This document shows positions 7,023 through 61,795 of a stretch of DNA of 64,000 nucleotides, piece after piece. Location of the stretch: positions 89,205 through 153,204 of the forward strand of contig JALVVL010000007.1 in the NCBI GenBank assembly GCA_027023425.1, written 5' to 3'. This DNA comes from Anaerolineales bacterium (GTDB lineage: Bacteria; Chloroflexota; Anaerolineae; Anaerolineales; DRMV01). Positions within the stretch are counted from its first letter, which is position 1. Every line of letters starts with the position of its first letter. Made by a program: the position numbers and the translations under genes. Below the pieces are notes generated by a model. It was not told where the DNA came from and searched no databases. It was given only the letters and a program-made list of their open reading frames with translations.

Positions 7023-7394
7023 ATGGAAGACCTTTATCGCGAGCAAATTTTAGACCGCTACAAAGCCCCACGCCATCGTGGTCACCTTGAAGATTACGAT
7101 ATTGCTTACGAAGATGACAACCCCACCTGCGGCGACCACATACGCATTGAACTTAAAGTGCAGGATGGCCGCGTGGTTGATGCCCGTTTTGACGGGCAGG
7201 GTTGCGCCATTTCGCAGGCTTCTGCCGACCTTTTGCTTGATGAGGTTATCGGCAAACCGATTGAAGAGGTCAAGCAAATTTCCAAGGACGATTTGCTTGA
7301 AATTTTGGGCATAACGCTTGGTCCCGTTCGCCTCAAGTGCGCTTTGCTCTCGCTCAAGGTGCTCAAAGCAGGAGTGTACGGGCTTGGTGCATAA
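7023..7394 (+). CDS. sufU: Fe-S cluster assembly scaffold/sulfurtransferase SufU (IscU/NifU-N-like)
   Basis: MEDLYREQILDRYKAPRHRG..., conserved cysteines in CGD, GCAIS and LKCALL contexts. AGGAGG lies 6 nt upstream of the ATG at 7023. Confidence 0.85.
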   Translation: MEDLYREQILDRYKAPRHRGHLEDYDIAYEDDNPTCGDHIRIELKVQDGRVVDARFDGQGCAISQASADLLLDEVIGKPIEEVKQISKDDLLEILGITLGPVRLKCALLSLKVLKAGVYGLGA

Positions 7395-7445
7395 TCCACC
7401 TTGATTGTTGATTTAGGTCTTTTGCAACTTAGCATCCAAATTTTT

Positions 7446-7576
7446 GATCTCTCCCTACCCCCGCTACGGCGACGCTATCGCGTCACCGTAGCCGCCCCCT
7501 TCCCTCCATTACTAAGGGAGGGAAGGGGGCAGATGAGCCGAGCGCCAGCGAGGCTCATCGGGGGATAGGTGAGATC
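7446..7576. repeat. Family B nested multi-hairpin palindromic element, copy 1
   Basis: Closing inverted repeat GATCTCTCCCTACCCCCG / CGGGGGATAGGTGAGATC encloses three hairpins. These are CTACGGCGACGC..GCGTCACCGTAG, GCCCCCTTCCCTCC-attacta-GGAGGGAAGGGGGC and GATGAGCC..GGCTCATC. Homologous copies at 11840-11904, 22039-22142 and 52459-52586. Confidence 0.85.
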
Positions 7577-7609
7577 TTGCCCTAAGCAGGATGGATAACA
7601 CTTTCCGGA

Positions 7610-8434
7610 ATGCCTAAAATCTTGTTTGATAATGCATTGCGCAAGAGAAAGAAGGCTAACGCCGCTCTCTTGAGCGTGCTCATTTGGTCGCTTCTTCTGC
7701 TGTATTTTCTCTTGGCCGCCGGTTTGCTTTCGGGCGTGCTTCCTCGCGGCTGGCGCGCTGCCGGTTTGCCGGTGCTCACCCTCATCGCTTGGGGCACGGC
7801 GATTTTGCACGCTGTGGCTTCGCTCGGCGGCTGGGCGGCTGCGCTTTTCTTCGGCATTTCTTTTGCCGTTTCGCTTGGGATGGAGACCCTTGGCGTGCGC
7901 ACCGGTTTGGTTTACGGCGCATACCACTACACACCAAAACTTGGCTTTAGGGTGTTTGGGCTTGTTCCTGTGCTGATACCGCTGGCTTGGTTTGTGATGG
8001 TGTATCCGGGATGGGCGATGGCGCGGCGCATCGTTCCGAAGCGCGGCGCTTTGCGCAAAGCCGCTGTGGGCGCGGTTGGCGCTTTTGCCGTCACCGCTTG
8101 GGATTTGGCGTTAGACCCTTTTATGGTCAAGCGCGGGTATTGGGTTTGGGAGAATGGCGGCGGTTTTTTCGGTGTCCCCCTGCACAACTTTGCTGGTTGG
8201 TGGCTGACGGTGTTTTTGGTTTTGGCTTTGTTTGAGGCGCTTGGGGAATGGAAGCCCTGTCGCCCCAACGCTTTTTCCCTTCAGCCGGTGGTGCTTTATG
8301 CCGTGATGGGCTTTACCACTGTTTGGGCGGCTTTGCAGAATGGATTGGGCGGCCCCGCGTTGGCCGGTGCGTTTGCCATGTTGCCTTGGGCGCTTTGGGG
8401 ATGGGCTTCCGCTCGCGAAGGGGATGAGGCATGA
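7610..8434 (+). CDS. Polytopic membrane protein, carotenoid-biosynthesis-protein-like (DUF422/PF04240-like)
   Basis: About 7 predicted TM segments. The motifs VLIPLAWFVMVYPGW and PLHNFAGWWLTVF resemble the DUF422 family as I recall it. The family call is from memory only. Confidence 0.5.
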   Translation: MPKILFDNALRKRKKANAALLSVLIWSLLLLYFLLAAGLLSGVLPRGWRAAGLPVLTLIAWGTAILHAVASLGGWAAALFFGISFAVSLGMETLGVRTGLVYGAYHYTPKLGFRVFGLVPVLIPLAWFVMVYPGWAMARRIVPKRGALRKAAVGAVGAFAVTAWDLALDPFMVKRGYWVWENGGGFFGVPLHNFAGWWLTVFLVLALFEALGEWKPCRPNAFSLQPVVLYAVMGFTTVWAALQNGLGGPALAGAFAMLPWALWGWASAREGDEA

Positions 8435-9591: not shown

Positions 9592-9709
9592 CGCTTACCT
9601 CCATGGGTTGGGCATCGCCGTGTTTGGGCGGAAATTGGGGCATGTCTGAAAAGAGGTGTCGCTGCGAGGCGGCATAGCCGCTGAATCAGTCTCCTGTCAA
9701 TTGACAGGA

Positions 9710-10129
9710 CTTCCGCAGTTGCTCGTAGAAGCGCTTGCTTTCATGTCGTGGCGAGCCGCCGTAGGCGGCGAAGCCATCTCCTAGACGGTGTTCAGGGGCG
9801 GACACCAGCCCCTGAAAACACCATTTTTTGGAGTGCAGTGCCTCGGCACCGCTTTGGAAAGCGGTGACTTGTCGCCGCATTCCAATAAGAACATCCTCCG
9901 AGAAAGCAAGTATTAGCGATAAGATTGGAAAATTCGGGCGGCCGCCTCACTTTGCCAAATTACTTTATCGGCGCTAAAAGTGCAACGTTTCGCTTGTTCC
10001 GCCTTTGGAGGTGGTAGGACAGGGGTTTGATAAACCCCTGTCCGCCCCTGAACCCAGACGGTGGGGGAGACCGCTTCGGCGGTCTACGACCGCCTCGCGG
10101 TGACATGAAGGAAGGGCTGCGTAACTCCT
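9710..10129. mobile_element. Family C palindromic element (TTACGCAGTTG-type ends), copy interrupted by a family D insertion
   Basis: Left part 9710-9790 and right part 10054-10129 are colinear with the uninterrupted copies at 19501-19630, 39421-39570 and 61339-61488. The sequence AGACGGTG is present on both sides of the insert. Confidence 0.8.
9791..10053. mobile_element. Family D MITE-like element (263 bp) with terminal inverted repeats and 8-bp target-site duplication
   Basis: Ends are TTCAGGGGCGGACA... and ...TGTCCGCCCCTGAAC, a 14-15 nt terminal inverted repeat. Flanked by direct AGACGGTG (9783-9790 and 10056-10063), where the uninterrupted family C copy has a single CAGACAGTG (19571-19579). 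No ORF of its own, so non-autonomous. Confidence 0.75.
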
Positions 10130-11725: not shown

Positions 11726-12031
11726 TTTCAGGGCGGACACCTGCCCTTGAAAACGCTACTTTTTACCAACTCACATTACGCAGCGGTGATTGACAGGTAA
11801 CAATTTCACCCTATGAAACCGTCGTACTTTCGGTTTCTTCGCCCTCACCACTCCCCCAGAGCCTTGCTTCGCGGCGGCTCAGCAGCGGGGGTAGGGTGAG
11901 GGCGCTTAGATATGTTGATGCTCAATTGCGTAACATGAGTTACCAAATTGCCTCGTCGGTGAACATTTCTCTTGTTTTGCCTTTGGAGGAGGCGGGGCAT
12001 GGGTTTGACAGGCCCCTGCCTGACCCTGAAC
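11726..12031. mobile_element. Family D MITE-like element, copy 2, carrying a nested family B element
   Basis: The ends TTTCAGGGCGGACACCTGCCCTTGAAAACGC and ...CTTTGGAGGAGGCGGGGCATGGGTTTGACAGGCCCCTGCCTGACCCTGAAC are colinear with the ends of 9791-10053. The interior 11776-11934 is a family B element. Only a weak possible target duplication (TCTAAc/TCTAAg). Confidence 0.65.
11776..11934. repeat. Family B element, extended copy (core 11840-11904, central hairpin deleted) with TTACGCA-type ends
   Basis: The core CGCCCTCACCACTCCCCC...GGGGGTAGGGTGAGGGCG encloses GAGCC..GGCTC. The flank 11905-11934 is about 90% identical to the reverse complement of 22009-22040. Ends are TTACGCAG (11776) and TTGCGTAA (11926-11933). 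Confidence 0.7.
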
Positions 12032-19410: not shown

Positions 19411-19500
19411 AAGCAAAGCAATCGCTGAGAGCCTTCAGGCGCAAGCAAGAAGCATAGAGAGCCTATTTCAAAAAAGATGTAAAATGAAATAAGGTGAGGG

Positions 19501-19630
19501 TCTACGCGGTTGCTGGTAGAAGAGCGCGTTTTCGTGTCATGGCGAGCCGCCATAGGCGGCGAAGCCATCCCCCAGACAGTGGGGGAAACCGCCTCGCAGC
19601 GACATGAAGCAGGAGAACTGCGTAACTCCT
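19501..19630. repeat. Family C palindromic element, copy with internal hairpin deleted
   Basis: TCTACGCGGTTGCTGGTAGAAGAGCGC...GTCATGGCGAGCCGCCATAGGCGGCGAAGCCATCCCCCAGACAGTGGGGG...GACATGAAG...AACTGCGTAACTCCT. Colinear with 39421-39570 (inverted) but lacks the GTCGTAGACCGCCGAAGCGGTCTC hairpin. Confidence 0.8.
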
Positions 19631-22008: not shown

Positions 22009-22142
22009 GTTACGCAGTTGAGCATCAACGCATCTGAGCGCCCTCACCTTACCCCCGCTGCGCGCCCCCTTTCCTCTCCCACTGGGAGAGGAAAGGGGGC
22101 TGAGCCGCCGCGAAGCAAGGCTCTGGGGGATAGGTGAGGGCG
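22009..22142. repeat. Family B nested palindromic element, extended copy, between the two broken cassettes
   Basis: GTTACGCAGTTGAGCATCAACGCATCTGAG extension, then the core CGCCCTCACCTTACCCCCG ... GCCCCCTTTCCTCTCCC-actg-GGAGAGGAAAGGGGGC ... GAGCC..GGCTC ... CTGGGGGATAGGTGAGGGCG. Confidence 0.85.
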
Positions 22143-26247: not shown

Positions 26248-26679
26248 AGGGCGCAAAGGTTAACGCAGAGACGCAGAGGAAGCAGAGATGCAGAGAGCGC
26301 AAAGGAAAAGATTAGCGATTTAGGATTTGCGGTATTCTCTGAAATCGGCGAAAATCTGTGTCAATCGGTGGATGAAAACCACAGATTACGCAGATTAGCA
26401 CAGATTTTTTCTGCGGAATCTGTGAAATCTGCGGTTTGTTTTCTTCAATCGGTGTAAATCTGTGTCAATCGGTGGATAGTAACGCCAAGGACGCCAAGGA
26501 GTTAACGCCAAGGACGCCAAGAAACCAAAGGACGCCAAGGTTAACGCAGAGGCGCAGAGTAGGGGCGAGGCATCGCCTCGCCCAGAGACGCAGAGAGAAA
26601 ATTTCTGTGTTTTCTGTGGTGCTTCTGTGTCCTCTGTGTTTTTTCTTCAATCGGAGTAAATCTGTGTCAATCGGTGGAT
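26248..26679. repeat. Family A modular mosaic repeat cluster, copy 2 (alaS / ABC-ATPase divergent intergenic region)
   Basis: R words (26260-26310), S-like module (26341-26373), H hairpin (26375-26437), S (26442-26476), K words (26480-26540), R words flanking a GGGCGAGGC-atc-GCCTCGCCC hairpin (26543-26600), C words (26601-26640), S (26645-26679). Confidence 0.85.
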
Positions 26680-26784
26680 GAGAAAAAACAATTGAGGAGC
26701 CGTGAATGCCGAAATTATACCCCAACAGGTATGGAGTATAATAAAGAACAAGCCCCACCAAAGTCCTTTTTCAGGAGAATGCAA

Positions 26785-27885: not shown

Positions 27886-27892
27886 AATTTTG

Positions 27893-28250
27893 CCCACCGA
27901 TTGAAGAAGAAAACCACAGAGAACACAGAAATTTACAGAGAGCACAGAGAAAAATCTGTGCTAATCTGTGGTTCTCATCCACCGATTGACACAGATTTAC
28001 ACTGATTGAGTAAGAAAACCACAGAAGACACAGAAATTTACAGAGAACACAGAAATTTTTTCTTGGCGCCCTCTGCGCCTCTGCGTTACCGCCCTTCGTG
28101 TCCTTGGCGACCTTGGCGTTCTCATCCACCGATTGGATGGTTGAAACCGCAGATTTCACAGATTCCGCAGAAAGAATCTGTGCTAATCTGTGTAATCTGT
28201 GGTTTTTTCTCTGCGTCTCTGCTTTCTCTGCGTCTCTGCGGTTCCCCTTG
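27893..28250. repeat. Family A modular mosaic repeat cluster, copy 3 (forward orientation)
   Basis: Order partial S, C, half-H, S (27976-28010), C (28013-28055), R', K' (28060-28120), short S (28121-28140), H hairpin (28143-28206, followed by TTTTTT), R' (28207-28240). The ORFs 27623..28402 and 28006.. upstream of 28276 are artefacts. Confidence 0.85.
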
Positions 28251-32755: not shown

Positions 32756-33093
32756 TAACGCCAAGGTCGCCAGGGGACAAACCACAGATTAGCACAGACT
32801 TTTTCTGTGAAATCCGCGAAATCTGCGGTTTCAACCATCCAATCGGTGCAAATCTGTGTCAATCGGTGGATAAGAACCACAGATTACACAGATTAGCACA
32901 GATTTTTTTCTGTGTTTTCTGTGGTGTTTCTGTGTCCTCTGTGGTTTTCTCCTTCAATCGGTGTAAATCTGTGTCAATCGGTGGATGAAACGAACCACAG
33001 ATTACACAGATTAGCACAGATTCTTTCTGCGGAATCTGTGAAATCTGCGGTTTCAACCATCCAATCGGTGTAAATCTGTGTCAATCGGTGGAT
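32756..33093. repeat. Family A modular mosaic repeat cluster, copy 4 (inverted orientation)
   Basis: K word, short H, S, half-H plus C', S, full H (32993-33053), S (33057-33093). The last S module overlaps the final codons and stop of the FemAB-family gene. Confidence 0.85.
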
Positions 33094-34211
33094 ATGCGGT
33101 TTTGGGCGGCCTTTCTGAGACGGTGGAAGCCCATCCGCCGCCAGAGGGCGAGCACGCGCGGCGCGGCTTGTGCGTAAAGCCAGTAGGCGGCGCGGTTTGC
33201 GGGGAAATCCCATGCGCCGATGGTGCGCACCACCTCCGCGCCAAAGCCGCGCTTGAACCGGTATACGCCCCACATGGGCGCGTCGGGCGAAAATTCATCG
33301 GGCGCGCCCCAAAAGTCGTAAATTTTGCATCCTAAAGCGCGGGCGCGGCGGATGGCTTCCCACTGGAGCAGGTAAGTCGGCATCAGGTTGCGGTGCTCGC
33401 CGGTGGACATGCCGTAAAAGTAGTAAGCCCGTTCTGCAAAGTGGAACATCACCAGCGCGGCGACAGGTTTTCCTTCCACCTCGGCGATGAAGAAATCGGC
33501 TAAGCCCGCGTCGGCGAGCCTTCCCCAAACGCGCAGGTAGTATTCGCGCGGGCGGATGATGAAGCCGTCGCGCGCGGCGGTAACGGCGTACATGCGGTAG
33601 AGCAGGTCGTAATCTGCAGGGCTACCCATCCGCACGCGCACGCCCTTGCGCGCTGCTAAACGGATGTTGTAGCGCGTTTTTTGCTTCATCCGCCGCAGGA
33701 TTTCGTCTTCGTCGGGGGTGAGGTCAAGCCAAAGGGTGTTGCGAAATTGGACTTGGGAGTTGGAAAAGCGCCAGCCGAGCGACTCCAGCGTTTCGCGGAG
33801 GGCTTTGCCGGTGGGGTTGGGGCGCTCATCTTCGGAATTTGGCTCGCCGTAGGCGAGCACCACGTCGGGGTCAATTTTGATTGAAACCGCGCCGCGCCGC
33901 CGCGCAAATTGCTCCAAATCTTCCAAAACGCGCAAGCGCAGCTCGGTGTCCGCCCAATTCAAAAGCGGGGCTTTGGGGGCGTAAAGCAGGCGCAAAAAGC
34001 CCACCTTTCGCTCCAGAACCAGCGCCAGCGCCGCGGTTTTGCCCGCTTGCTCCCAGCGGAGGTAGTGCGGCCTCCAGCCGTATTCGGCCTTTAGCGCCGC
34101 CCAGTGGGTTGTCTGGAGCAGGTGTGCCGCCGGTAGCGAGGCGGCCGCTTCATCCCAGTCTGCCGGTGGGGCGGGGGAGATGCTCAGGGTAATCTCGGAG
34201 CCGCTTGCCAT
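33081..34211 (-). CDS. FemAB-family peptidyltransferase (peptidoglycan interpeptide bridge formation type)
   Basis: HLLQT..WA..K...GW.P......, KTRYNIR.A.K.GV.V and the tandem acyl-CoA-NAT-like halves are typical of FemABX/lipid II aminoacyl transferases. The last codons (I)STD plus TGA lie in a repeat module. Confidence 0.75.
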   Translation of the reverse strand: MASGSEITLSISPAPPADWDEAAASLPAAHLLQTTHWAALKAEYGWRPHYLRWEQAGKTAALALVLERKVGFLRLLYAPKAPLLNWADTELRLRVLEDLEQFARRRGAVSIKIDPDVVLAYGEPNSEDERPNPTGKALRETLESLGWRFSNSQVQFRNTLWLDLTPDEDEILRRMKQKTRYNIRLAARKGVRVRMGSPADYDLLYRMYAVTAARDGFIIRPREYYLRVWGRLADAGLADFFIAEVEGKPVAALVMFHFAERAYYFYGMSTGEHRNLMPTYLLQWEAIRRARALGCKIYDFWGAPDEFSPDAPMWGVYRFKRGFGAEVVRTIGAWDFPANRAAYWLYAQAAPRVLALWRRMGFHRLRKAAQNRISTD

Positions 34212-39378: not shown

Positions 39379-39420
39379 AGCCGCAATTTACAGATTTGCT
39401 GACTGACCAACAAAGGTTTA

Positions 39421-39570
39421 GGAGTTACGCAGTTCTCCTCCCTCATGTCGCCGCGAGGTGGTCGTAGACCGCCGAAGCGGTCTCCCCCATCATCTGGGGG
39501 ATGGCTTCGCCGCCTATGGCGGCTCGCCACGACATGAGAGCAAGCGCTTCTACGAGCAACTGCGTAAGTC
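39421..39570. repeat. Family C palindromic element, full copy
   Basis: GGAGTTACGCAGTT...CATGTCGCCGCGAGG..GTCGTAGACCGCCGAAGCGGTCTCCCCCA..TGGGGGATGGCTTCGCCGCCTATGGCGGCTCGCCACGACATG...GCAACTGCGTAAGTCC. Terminal inverted repeat TTACGCAGTT / AACTGCGTAA. The two arms are imperfectly complementary and each holds its own small hairpin. Confidence 0.85.
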
Positions 39571-39834
39571 CCAAGGCTGTAACTGCCTACCCGCTTCGTA
39601 AGCGAGGGTAAATTCTTTGGTGCGGTGTGAACAGAAGTCCACGCAGGTGGACTTCACAACTTGTGCCCGTGACTTTAGTCGCTGGATGCAAGCAACGGCA
39701 GTTGAAACTGCACCCACCACCTGCGAAGTCGTCCTACGGCGATTTTTGGGAAAAGCAAGCCTCAAAATGGCACATTTCACCCGCACTCGCGTAGGTAATT
39801 ACCAACAATTCCACTTGTCCCAGAGGTCCCCGGC

Positions 39835-43324: not shown

Positions 43325-43384
43325 AAAACCGCAGATTTCGCAGATTACGCAGAAAATCCGTGAAATCTGCGTAATCTGTGGTTT
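43325..43384. repeat. Family A solitary H-type hairpin between eno and the HAD-like gene
   Basis: AAAACCGCAGATTTCGCAGATTACGCAGA...TGAAATCTGCGTAATCTGTGGTTT. An A-run lies 5' and a T-run 3', so terminator-like on both strands. Confidence 0.75.
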
Positions 43385-52458: not shown

Positions 52459-52586
52459 CGCCCTCACTTATCCCCCACCGCCTCGCTGGTGCTCGGCGGT
52501 TGCCCCCTTCTCTCTCCCACTGGGAGAGAGAAGGGGGCGCGGGGCTGAGGCTTTGCCGAAGCACCCGCGGGGGAAGAGTGAGGGCG
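52459..52586. repeat. Family B nested multi-hairpin palindromic element, copy 4
   Basis: CGCCCTCACTTATCCCCC / GGGGGAAGAGTGAGGGCG closes three hairpins: ACCGCC..GGCGGT, GCCCCCTTCTCTCTCCC-actg-GGAGAGAGAAGGGGGC and GCGGGG...CCCGC. Confidence 0.85.
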
Positions 52587-54145: not shown

Positions 54146-54722
54146 CCTTGGCAAGGAGAAACCACAGATTACGCAGAAAAACATCCACCGATTGACACAG
54201 ATTTACACCGATAGGGTTGTTGAAACCGCAGATTTCGCAGATTCCACAGAAAAAATCTGTGCTAATCTGTGCAATCTGTGGTTTTCATCCACCGATTGAC
54301 ACAGATTTACACCGATAGGGTTGTTGAAACCGCAGATTTCGCTGATTCCGCAGAAAAAAATCTGTGCTAATCTGTGTAATCTGTGGTTTTCATCCACCGA
54401 TTGACACAGATTTACACCGATAGGGTTGTTGAAACCGCAGATTTCGCAGATTCCACAGAAAAAATCTGTGCTAATCTGTGTAATCTGTGGTTTTCATCCA
54501 CCGATTGACACAGATTTACACCGATTGAGTGAGAAAACCACAGAGGACACAGAAACACCACAGAAAACACAGAAATTTTCTCTTTGCGTCCTTTGCGCCT
54601 CTGTTCCCTCTGCGCCTCTGCGTTACCTCCTTGGCGTCCTTTGTGCCCTTGGCGACCTTGGCGTTAACCTCTTTGCGTCCTTTGCGCCTCTGTTCCCTCT
54701 GCGCCTCTGCGTTACCCTCGGC
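54146..54722. repeat. Family A mosaic cluster, copy 5, including a 104-105 bp tandem array (54182-54530, 3.3 units)
   Basis: Each unit is an S module plus an H hairpin, starting at 54182, 54286, 54391 and 54495 (partial), with only a few substitutions between units. Followed by C words (54534-54575) and alternating R'/K' words (54580-54722). ORFs 54072..54299, 54426..55190 and 54529..54777 are artefacts. Confidence 0.9.
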
Positions 54723-61197: not shown

Positions 61198-61338
61198 CCT
61201 TTTCTCCTTGGTCTTTAGGGTTCAAGGGTAAACACGCACGCGGGAAAGGGAGAATTGAGCGTTACTCAGCGGTGGAGCGGCCAAAATAACGCCTTTTGCC
61301 CCCTGAATCGGCCATAGACCGAGGGATTTATAAAACTA

Positions 61339-61488
61339 AGAGTTACGCAGTTCCCCGCTTTCTGTCATCGCGAGGCGGTCGTAGACCGCCGAAGCGGTCT
61401 CCCCCACTGTTTGGGGGATGGCTTCGCCGTCTATGGCGGCTCGCCATGACATGAAAACGCGCGCTTTTGCCAGCAACTGCGTAAGTCC
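61339..61488. repeat. Family C palindromic element, full copy
   Basis: AGAGTTACGCAGTT...GTCATCGCGAGGCGGTCGTAGACCGCCGAAGCGGTCTCCCCCACTGTTTGGGGGATGGCTTCGCCGTCTATGGCGGCTCGCCATGACATG...GCAACTGCGTAAGTCC. Colinear with 39421-39570. Confidence 0.85.
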
Positions 61489-61795
61489 TAAAAACTTTAG
61501 GTACTCCCGTAGGTTTTTGGTCACAAAGGCACAAAGGGCCTTTTTTGAGCACCTTTCCTTGCATGGCGAGGGAGCAACCATGCTCTGCGCGCCCTTGAAA
61601 ATGGGGGAATGGGAAGTTGGACTTGCTTGCTATCATTATACACGAATTTATCGCTAACGTGCGGCGGGGTAAGGCATAGGAGGATGCTTTTACCACGGGG
61701 GCTTTGTGCGGCTCGTTTTGGCATGTTTTGCTTTCACTGTGCAGTTCCCCATGCTCTTTGCCGCCCAATGGTACAATCGGAAAGACGGAGAGAAA

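Follow-up and report, generated by a model that had tools for sequence, protein, structure and literature searches.

This locus raises the question of whether one small repeat has transposed into another, and of what kind of element did so. According to the original prediction, a mobile, non-autonomous element of a family termed D had inserted into a copy of a second repeat, family C, and had created an 8-bp target-site duplication (TSD). Here, the window (the whole 64-kb stretch of DNA that was analysed) was compared with further copies of both families. D is very probably a 262-bp non-coding, non-autonomous transposon with terminal inverted repeats (TIRs), a MITE, which generates duplications of 10-11 bp, prefers palindromic targets and split a family C copy at this site. 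As far as could be found, the family has not been described before, and a search for literature on the assemblies and samples concerned yielded nothing. The coordinates of the features are collected in Table 1.

Table 1. Family D, family C and target features in the window, and exact in-register duplications flanking D at individual loci.
Feature	Position or locus	Strand	Remarks
Family D element, copy D1, subfamily a	9791..10052	+	262 bp, non-coding
D left TIR TTCAGGGGCGGACA	9791..9804	+	also pairs as a terminal hairpin with 9809-9816 (CCCCTGAA)
D right TIR, TGTCCGCCCCTGAA on the + strand	10039..10052	-	subterminal hairpin GGACAGGGGTTTGATAAACCCCTGTCC just before
Left TSD copy CCTAGACGGTG	9780..9790	+	T at 9782 is a later mutation; L002 and L003 read CCCAGACGGTG
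Right TSD copy CCCAGACGGTG	10053..10063	+	one mismatch to the left copy
Family C left arm, left TIR AGGACTTCCGCAGTT at 9706-9720	9706..9779	+	alignment of the four window copies; runs up to the duplicated target
Family C right arm, right TIR ...CTGCGTAACTCCT ending at 10129	10064..10129	+	alignment; termini located
Intact family C copy, empty-site comparator, centre CCCCCAGACAGTGGGGG	19497..19630	+	BLAST and alignment
Intact family C copy, empty-site comparator	39420..39572	-	BLAST and alignment
Intact family C copy, empty-site comparator	61338..61489	-	BLAST and alignment
Second D copy, D2, old and diverged, ~304 bp	11727..12030	+	ends ~80-85% identical to D1
Unoccupied palindrome GCCCCCTTCCCTCCATTACTAAGGGAGGGAAGGGGGC	7494..7530		repeat search; type holding D in L019, L028, L038
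Unoccupied palindrome GCCCCCTTTCCTCTCCCACTGGGAGAGGAAAGGGGGC	22064..22100		repeat search; type holding D in L034, L037, L033
Unoccupied palindrome, same type as 22064..22100	52502..52538		repeat search
Exact duplication CCCACAGATG	L025		
Exact duplication CCCAGACGGT	L026		
Exact duplication TCCCAGTGGG	L027		
Exact duplication ACTGTCTGGG	L030		
Exact duplication TCCCAGCGGG	L031		plus one extra T
Exact duplication GTGGGAGAGG	L034		
Exact duplication CTGGGAGAGG	L037		
Exact duplication CCCAGACGGTG	L002		window locus

The D copy in family C, D1, is bounded by perfect 14-bp TIRs, the right one being the exact reverse complement of the left, and these two are the only matches to the TIR in the 64-kb window when up to two mismatches are allowed. 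The same 14-bp TIR is kept in 11 full-length D copies. CAGGGG occupies positions 3-8 of each end, the CAGGGG/CCCCTG motif occurs five times near the ends, and both ends contain hairpins (left, TTCAGGGG-N10-CCCCTGAA; right, GGACAGGGG-N9-CCCCTGTCC). D1 is small and codes for no transposase, its longest internal ORFs being 42-52 aa long; a protein search with a 64-aa ORF that reads out of the left end returned one 52-aa hit, which was not a transposase.

D1 interrupts the family C copy at 9706-10129 exactly at the central hairpin of C. Its flanks read CCTAGACGGTG on the left and CCCAGACGGTG on the right, an 11-bp duplication of the form CC(T/C)AGACGGTG, and the first 10 bp of the left copy correspond to the 10-bp duplications found at other D sites. 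AGACGGTG is indeed present at both 9783-9790 and 10056-10063, but a count of 8 bp falls short because position 9782 of this strain later changed from C to T. In two other assemblies (L002, GCA_027083855.1; L003, GCA_054009295.1) both flanks of D at this locus read CCCAGACGGTG, a perfect 11-bp duplication. The insert had also been given one base too many (263 bp, 9791-10053). Since the right terminus, TGAA, ends at 10052, the CCC at 10053-10055 is target and not insert, and the C at 10053 belongs to the duplication.

Family C is a repeat of ~130-150 bp whose inverted ends measure 15 bp (AGGAsTTACGCAGTT) and whose centre forms a hairpin (CCCCC-AGACNGT-GGGGG). BLAST and alignment identified four copies in the window, namely the one split by D1 and three intact ones, and in all three of the latter the loop sequence is present once; the stretch at 19561-19592 reads GAAGCCATCCCCCAGACAGTGGGGGAAACCGC, exactly as had been stated for the uninterrupted comparison copy. 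The TIRs, the duplication and these three single-site copies together confirm that a D element lies inside a C copy.

Further D copies were collected from a scan of a genome collection with a degenerate end pattern and from a metagenome scan with the conserved left-end pattern. The former gave mostly chance matches, together with one true D copy (L019) and a related cluster of TIRs (L012). The latter yielded 16 contigs (L023-L038) from two JGI metagenomes, two of which (L023 and L036) represent the window locus and the others different sites. In public contigs there are ~15 D insertions at sites other than the window locus. The window contributes two of the ~18 distinct sites over which D is dispersed, the others being L019, L024-L035, L037 and L038; this is a small sample drawn from a handful of related metagenomes. 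D1 is 92-99% identical to the copies at other loci. When every copy was oriented on D, seven full-length copies proved to be flanked by exact in-register duplications of 10 bp, in addition to the 11 bp at the window locus (Table 1), so the rule for D is 10 bp and now and then 11. Copies with a left end only (L024, L028, L029 and L038) adjoin 10-mers of the same kinds, and at three D loci an additional base lies between the TIR and the left duplication. There are exceptions: a 236-bp copy (L033) has no duplication, in L019 the terminal TTCA of the left tip is replaced by GAA, and D2, the second copy in the window, has no clear duplication, with a 6-bp CTCTAA lying 3 nt out of register. The duplication pairs are identical within a locus and differ between loci, which indicates that they arose at insertion and were not copied along with D. 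The exact duplications at seven other full-length copies, at unrelated sites, also place the duplication in the window beyond chance. TIRs and duplications at independent loci therefore bear out the view of D as a mobile non-autonomous element.

These copies bear on whether the direct repeat at the window locus might simply be part of the palindromic centre of family C and no TSD at all. The duplicated sequence does overlap the CCCCC/GGGGG hairpin of C. However, palindromes yield inverted and not direct repeats, the three intact copies hold the sequence once, and in unrelated palindromes, too, D is flanked by direct duplications of 10 bp, in both orientations, so the duplication is not a property of the C palindrome. 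The single-copy state of the intact C sites and the duplications at unrelated D sites refute this explanation, and we assign it practically no probability.

The sites at which D has inserted share a structural character. D strongly prefers palindromic repeats rich in GC, and nearly all insertions lie within or next to their loops; besides the central hairpin of family C, the targets belong to three further palindrome families. The duplicated 10 bp represent either the hairpin apex or the loop with the adjacent 3' arm, that is, two registers. The mean folding energy of reconstructed empty sites is -15.2 kcal/mol, compared with -6.2 kcal/mol (sd 3.0) for random 50-mers of the window. Intact palindromes, like the intact family C copies, carry the target once, and two of the three palindrome families other than C that serve as targets have empty members in the window (Table 1).

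Three unlinked loci, in the window, L025 and L026, carry composites of C and D in which D has the same position and orientation; the composites are ~90-94% identical over ~430 bp. A single insertion of D into C, followed by spread of the composite through whatever mobilises family C, might account for them; D1 would then have arrived as part of a composite and would not mark an insertion at this locus. We consider this improbable, because the left and right duplication copies match within a locus and differ between loci (CCCACAGATG on both sides in L025, CCCAGACGGT on both sides in L026), the composite in the window holds a D of subfamily a whereas those in L025 and L026 hold subfamily b, L030 and L024 carry D reversed at the same 10 bp, and D is also found in three other repeat families without C. 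Thus, co-varying duplication pairs, different subfamilies and both orientations point to independent strikes by D on the 10 bp of family C. The identical 10 bp were struck at least three times independently; the D inserts of the window and of L026, both in family C, differ in subfamily, and in L025 the family C copy has a different loop sequence that is likewise duplicated. Orientation varies within a single type of target: D in L030 and L024 runs opposite to D1 and to the copies in L025 and L026, and D in L027 runs opposite to those in L029 and L031.

The hairpins of D also bring up a structured RNA gene or a regulatory module that was copied by recombination between repeats and not by transposition. 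Compared with shuffled sequence, the single-strand fold of D has a much higher stability (z = -4.8), and D lies upstream of genes. On the other hand, Rfam covariance models gave no match at gathering score anywhere in the whole window, and the covariation term across D copies is negligible (-0.56), with almost no compensatory changes. An RNA gene is rejected on these two results, and with exact TIRs and site-specific 10-bp duplications, which are the signature of transposition, this origin as a whole is highly improbable. The hairpins and motifs of D are more readily explained as signals for protein binding or transposition than as RNA. In an alignment of 12 copies, conservation is strongest over ~60 bp at the left end and ~80 bp at the right end, and the middle is variable, as is expected if only transposition signals are constrained.

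Comparison between loci and strains gives an impression of the age of D and of this insertion. Subfamily a (D1, L019, L030 and L034) shows 95-98.5% identity between loci and subfamily b (L025, L026, L031 and L037) 97-99%, which suggests that the amplification of D was fairly recent. The insertion in the window had been described as caught in the sequence, a description that is not sustained. Every listed contig that reaches the window locus either contains D or breaks inside D or C, and one copy of the duplication has since mutated. Moreover, the orthologue of 9791-10052 in L003 (147-408) is a mosaic of the subfamilies in the order a/b/a, with a markers at 17, 212 and 222 and b markers from 75 to 180, and is 94.3% identical to D of the window strain, compared with 97.5% for the surrounding 800 bp. 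Such a pattern resembles the outcome of gene conversion among D copies at different sites. Taken together, D in all covering contigs, the mutated duplication and the mosaic show that the insertion is old, is fixed in the sampled strains and predates their divergence. The original prediction had suggested comparing strains for presence or absence; an empty allele of the window locus was not seen, nor was a filled versus empty allele of any one D site among the contigs compared. Next to two other C copies, look-ups by exact protein each retrieved only two or three contigs, all of which agreed with the window strain at the queried protein. We therefore infer the mobility of D from comparisons between paralogous sites and not from polymorphism.

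Most of the 10 contigs listed for the window locus end inside D or C, and the contigs L004-L010 begin at distances of 153-348 bp upstream of AMMECR1. Since many short-read contigs (L001-L010, L023-L038) end in this way, both repeats act as assembly breakpoints. A strain-level presence/absence polymorphism was observed elsewhere in the window. A 253-bp segment at 7388-7640 is present in the window, L001 and L003 and absent from L002 (about 11930-11960) and L004 (about 2160-2190); judging by gene maps, L005-L008 lack it as well, and the NifU-like gene there overlaps the carotenoid-synthase-like gene instead. One gene takes its stop, and the following gene its start, from this segment, which contains a palindromic repeat element of ~140 bp (GATCTCTCCCTACCCCC...GGGGGATAGGTGAGATC).

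Whether family C has itself transposed is less clear than for D. The label of nested transposition holds for D; family C has 15-bp TIRs and no clear duplication of its own, and because that duplication is ambiguous, nested transposition is shown for D alone. If each end is given one more base, two C copies have possible 5-bp repeats, AAGGT and AAAAC, and the interrupted copy at 9706-10129 has no such flanking repeat. The C copy of L026 is surrounded by a 13-bp repeat, CACCTTACCT(C/G)AC, and the TIRs of family C also bound at least one other type of interior (L037 324-485). The middle of D2 is unrelated to D1, having been replaced or invaded by other repeat sequence: the segment 11777-11935 is bounded by TTACGCAG...TTGCGTAA, which resembles the core of the family C TIR, and encloses the palindrome CGCCCTCACC...GGTGAGGGCG. 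A C-type element thus appears to be nested inside D2, the reverse of the arrangement at 9706-10129.

Several other sequences were met during the search. L019 (JALVYU010000027.1, 1009 bp) is filed in a 'Desulfurococcales archaeon' MAG; its D copy is 98.5% identical and sits inside a bacterial-type palindromic repeat that is also present in the window, and the contig is probably a mis-binned bacterial one. L012, from Anaerolineales bacterium HK-STAS-CHLO-2 (JACKAT010000003.1, 7000-7319), contains two nested pairs of the D-type TIR (TTCAAGGGCGGACAGG / TTCAGGGGCGGACAGG and their complements) that bound short elements with interiors unrelated to D; these elements lie within a 583-aa ORF and are read there as repeated VQGRTG...NLSALE peptide segments. 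As D-type TIRs surround shorter, unrelated interiors in this Anaerolineales MAG, the TIR family is wider than the organism of the window. Downstream of a truncated 82-bp D fragment, L032 carries a further repeat-like palindrome, ...ACAGGCTACAAGATGCGAAGTCCACCTGCGTGGACTTC..., at 836-960. Dense arrays of short periodic motifs (TTTCTGTG, AATCTGTG, CAATCGGTG, ACGCCAAGG and CTCTGCG) occupy several intergenic sites in both orientations (about 100-560, 26250-26720, 27890-28250, 32770-33100, 43326-43356 and 54150-54720). They correspond to the repeat-search labels D1-D11, D14-D15 and D18-D19, and form a system distinct from, and far more abundant than, families C or D.

D thus integrates in either orientation with a target duplication of 10 bp, sometimes 11 bp. 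One such insertion at 9780-10063 split the family C copy, after which the left duplication copy acquired its C>T change and orthologous D copies exchanged sequence with other D copies. We propose that D is moved in trans by a transposase encoded elsewhere. The chemistry may be of the DDE type, either cut-and-paste or copy-in, with a target cut staggered by one helical turn as in IS4-family elements. Potentially, the transposase recognises the TIR together with the reiterated CAGGGG/CCCCTG near both ends, and target choice might depend on how palindromes are structured or composed, with pyrimidines prevailing in the 5' arm, a loop between the arms and purines prevailing in the 3' arm. The IS with D-type ends that had been anticipated was found neither in the window nor in the fetched loci or the viral-contig scan. 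In the whole window the D TIR core occurs only at the two ends of D1, and TIR pairs in all fetched loci are of MITE size only. The sequence after the truncated D ends in L032 and L038 contains no transposase, and none was recognised by eye among the ORFs of L023-L038 (~65 kb of D-bearing metagenome contigs). A scan of viral contigs for D ends gave 13 single chance matches and no autonomous element. Since no autonomous partner was found in these sequences, the enzyme family is a guess.

It is tempting to speculate that D is the non-autonomous partner of an undescribed IS group of Chloroflexota or Anaerolineales-like bacteria, whose transposase makes staggered cuts of 10-11 bp and selects GC-rich palindromes by their hairpin- or cruciform-forming structure, and that D thereby takes part in a network of repeats. 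We put this forward tentatively, as a possibility less likely to be right than wrong. If true, D would land preferentially in other small mobile repeats, and with C-type elements also within D, as in D2, the nested repeats would form a self-reinforcing network.

By itself, the insertion opens no new biological question: D is an ordinary kind of bacterial MITE, and MITEs nested in other repeats are commonplace. What is gained is a clearly documented family of MITEs in an uncultivated lineage that has received little study, with defined ends, duplication length, two subfamilies and a target preference. Copies of D and C cause breaks in short-read assemblies, so knowing the families helps scaffolding and strain typing. 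In addition, the duplication length used in hunting for the transposase is now corrected, and with a TSD of 10-11 bp and not 8 bp the list of candidate IS families changes.

Among known systems, IS4-family members often select palindromic targets, and the IS231-derived mobile insertion cassettes of Bacillus cereus are an example of IS4-derived MITEs. Like D, such MITEs are small and non-coding, with short TIRs, many copies and a duplication of about one helical turn. They differ in that the D ends lack the IS4 signature, no IS4-type transposase, a DDE enzyme marked by the YREK motif, was found with D, and the host of D is an uncultivated bacterium known from MAGs and not a member of the Firmicutes or Proteobacteria. 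In the IS4 family, duplications measure ~10 bp, one helical turn (IS231, 10-12 bp; ISH8, 10 bp; IS4, 10-13 bp; PMC2266710 Table 1), with a range of 8-13 bp over the subgroups (PMC2266710), and the 10-11 bp of D agree with this. The termini of D, both of which open with TTCAGGGGCGGACA (5'-TTCAGGGG), do not fit the end signatures of the IS4 subgroups, CAT, CA, -AATR, CT, CW and YT-AA (PMC2266710 Table 1). Duplication length thus favours IS4-like enzymes, and the 8-bp families IS6, ISL3, IS66 and IS256 are disfavoured.

The ISAs1 family, with duplications of 8-10 bp and ends reported as CAGGG, is a tentative lead. Its duplication range overlaps that of D, and the CAGGGG of D is set back 2 nt from the tip; no ISAs1-type transposase was identified.

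Alternatively, D might be moved by a recombinase specific for single strands or hairpins (Y1 enzymes of the IS200/IS605 type, a PATE- or REPIN-like system, or an IS110-type enzyme) that recognises the hairpins at its ends and inserts it into hairpin loops. Such elements are not known to have TIRs, and their target duplications are lacking or 0-2 bp long; REPINs are not known to make target duplications. Conserved hairpins at both D ends and targets that are hairpin loops would suit such an enzyme, as would the finding that the IS110 family is the commonest among REP-targeting IS (PMC1525189). Nevertheless, the perfect 14-bp TIRs and regular 10-bp duplications of D make it very unlikely. IS200/IS605-derived PATEs and REPINs insert 3' of a fixed tetra- or pentanucleotide, and no common 4-5-nt sequence adjoins one end of D. 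REPINs and REP-BIMEs (RAYT, Y1) resemble D as short, hairpin-rich, dispersed intergenic repeats and differ from it in that D has true TIRs and regular 10-bp duplications; D therefore does not have the make-up of IS200/IS605-derived PATEs or REPINs. The repeats that host D, namely family C and the GC-rich palindromes, come closer to this class than D itself.

The closest parallel in target choice to the transposon that we take D to be is found in IS that insert into REP palindromes, which are known targets of IS3, IS110 and IS4 members (PMC1525189), including ISPsy8/IS1397-type elements (IS3), ISPa11, ISPpu9, ISPpu10 and ISRm19 (IS110) and ISRm22 (IS4) (Tobes & Pareja, 2006, PMC1525189). As in D, dispersed extragenic palindromes are struck repeatedly at the same point, on the hairpin's axis of symmetry or close to it (PMC1525189). 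These IS are autonomous and generate duplications of 0, 3 or 6 bp, whereas D is non-autonomous and generates 10-11 bp; D is also less site-exact, using several palindrome families and two registers. In summary, with D a non-autonomous element with a duplication of 10-11 bp joins the mobile elements that home to palindromic repeats.
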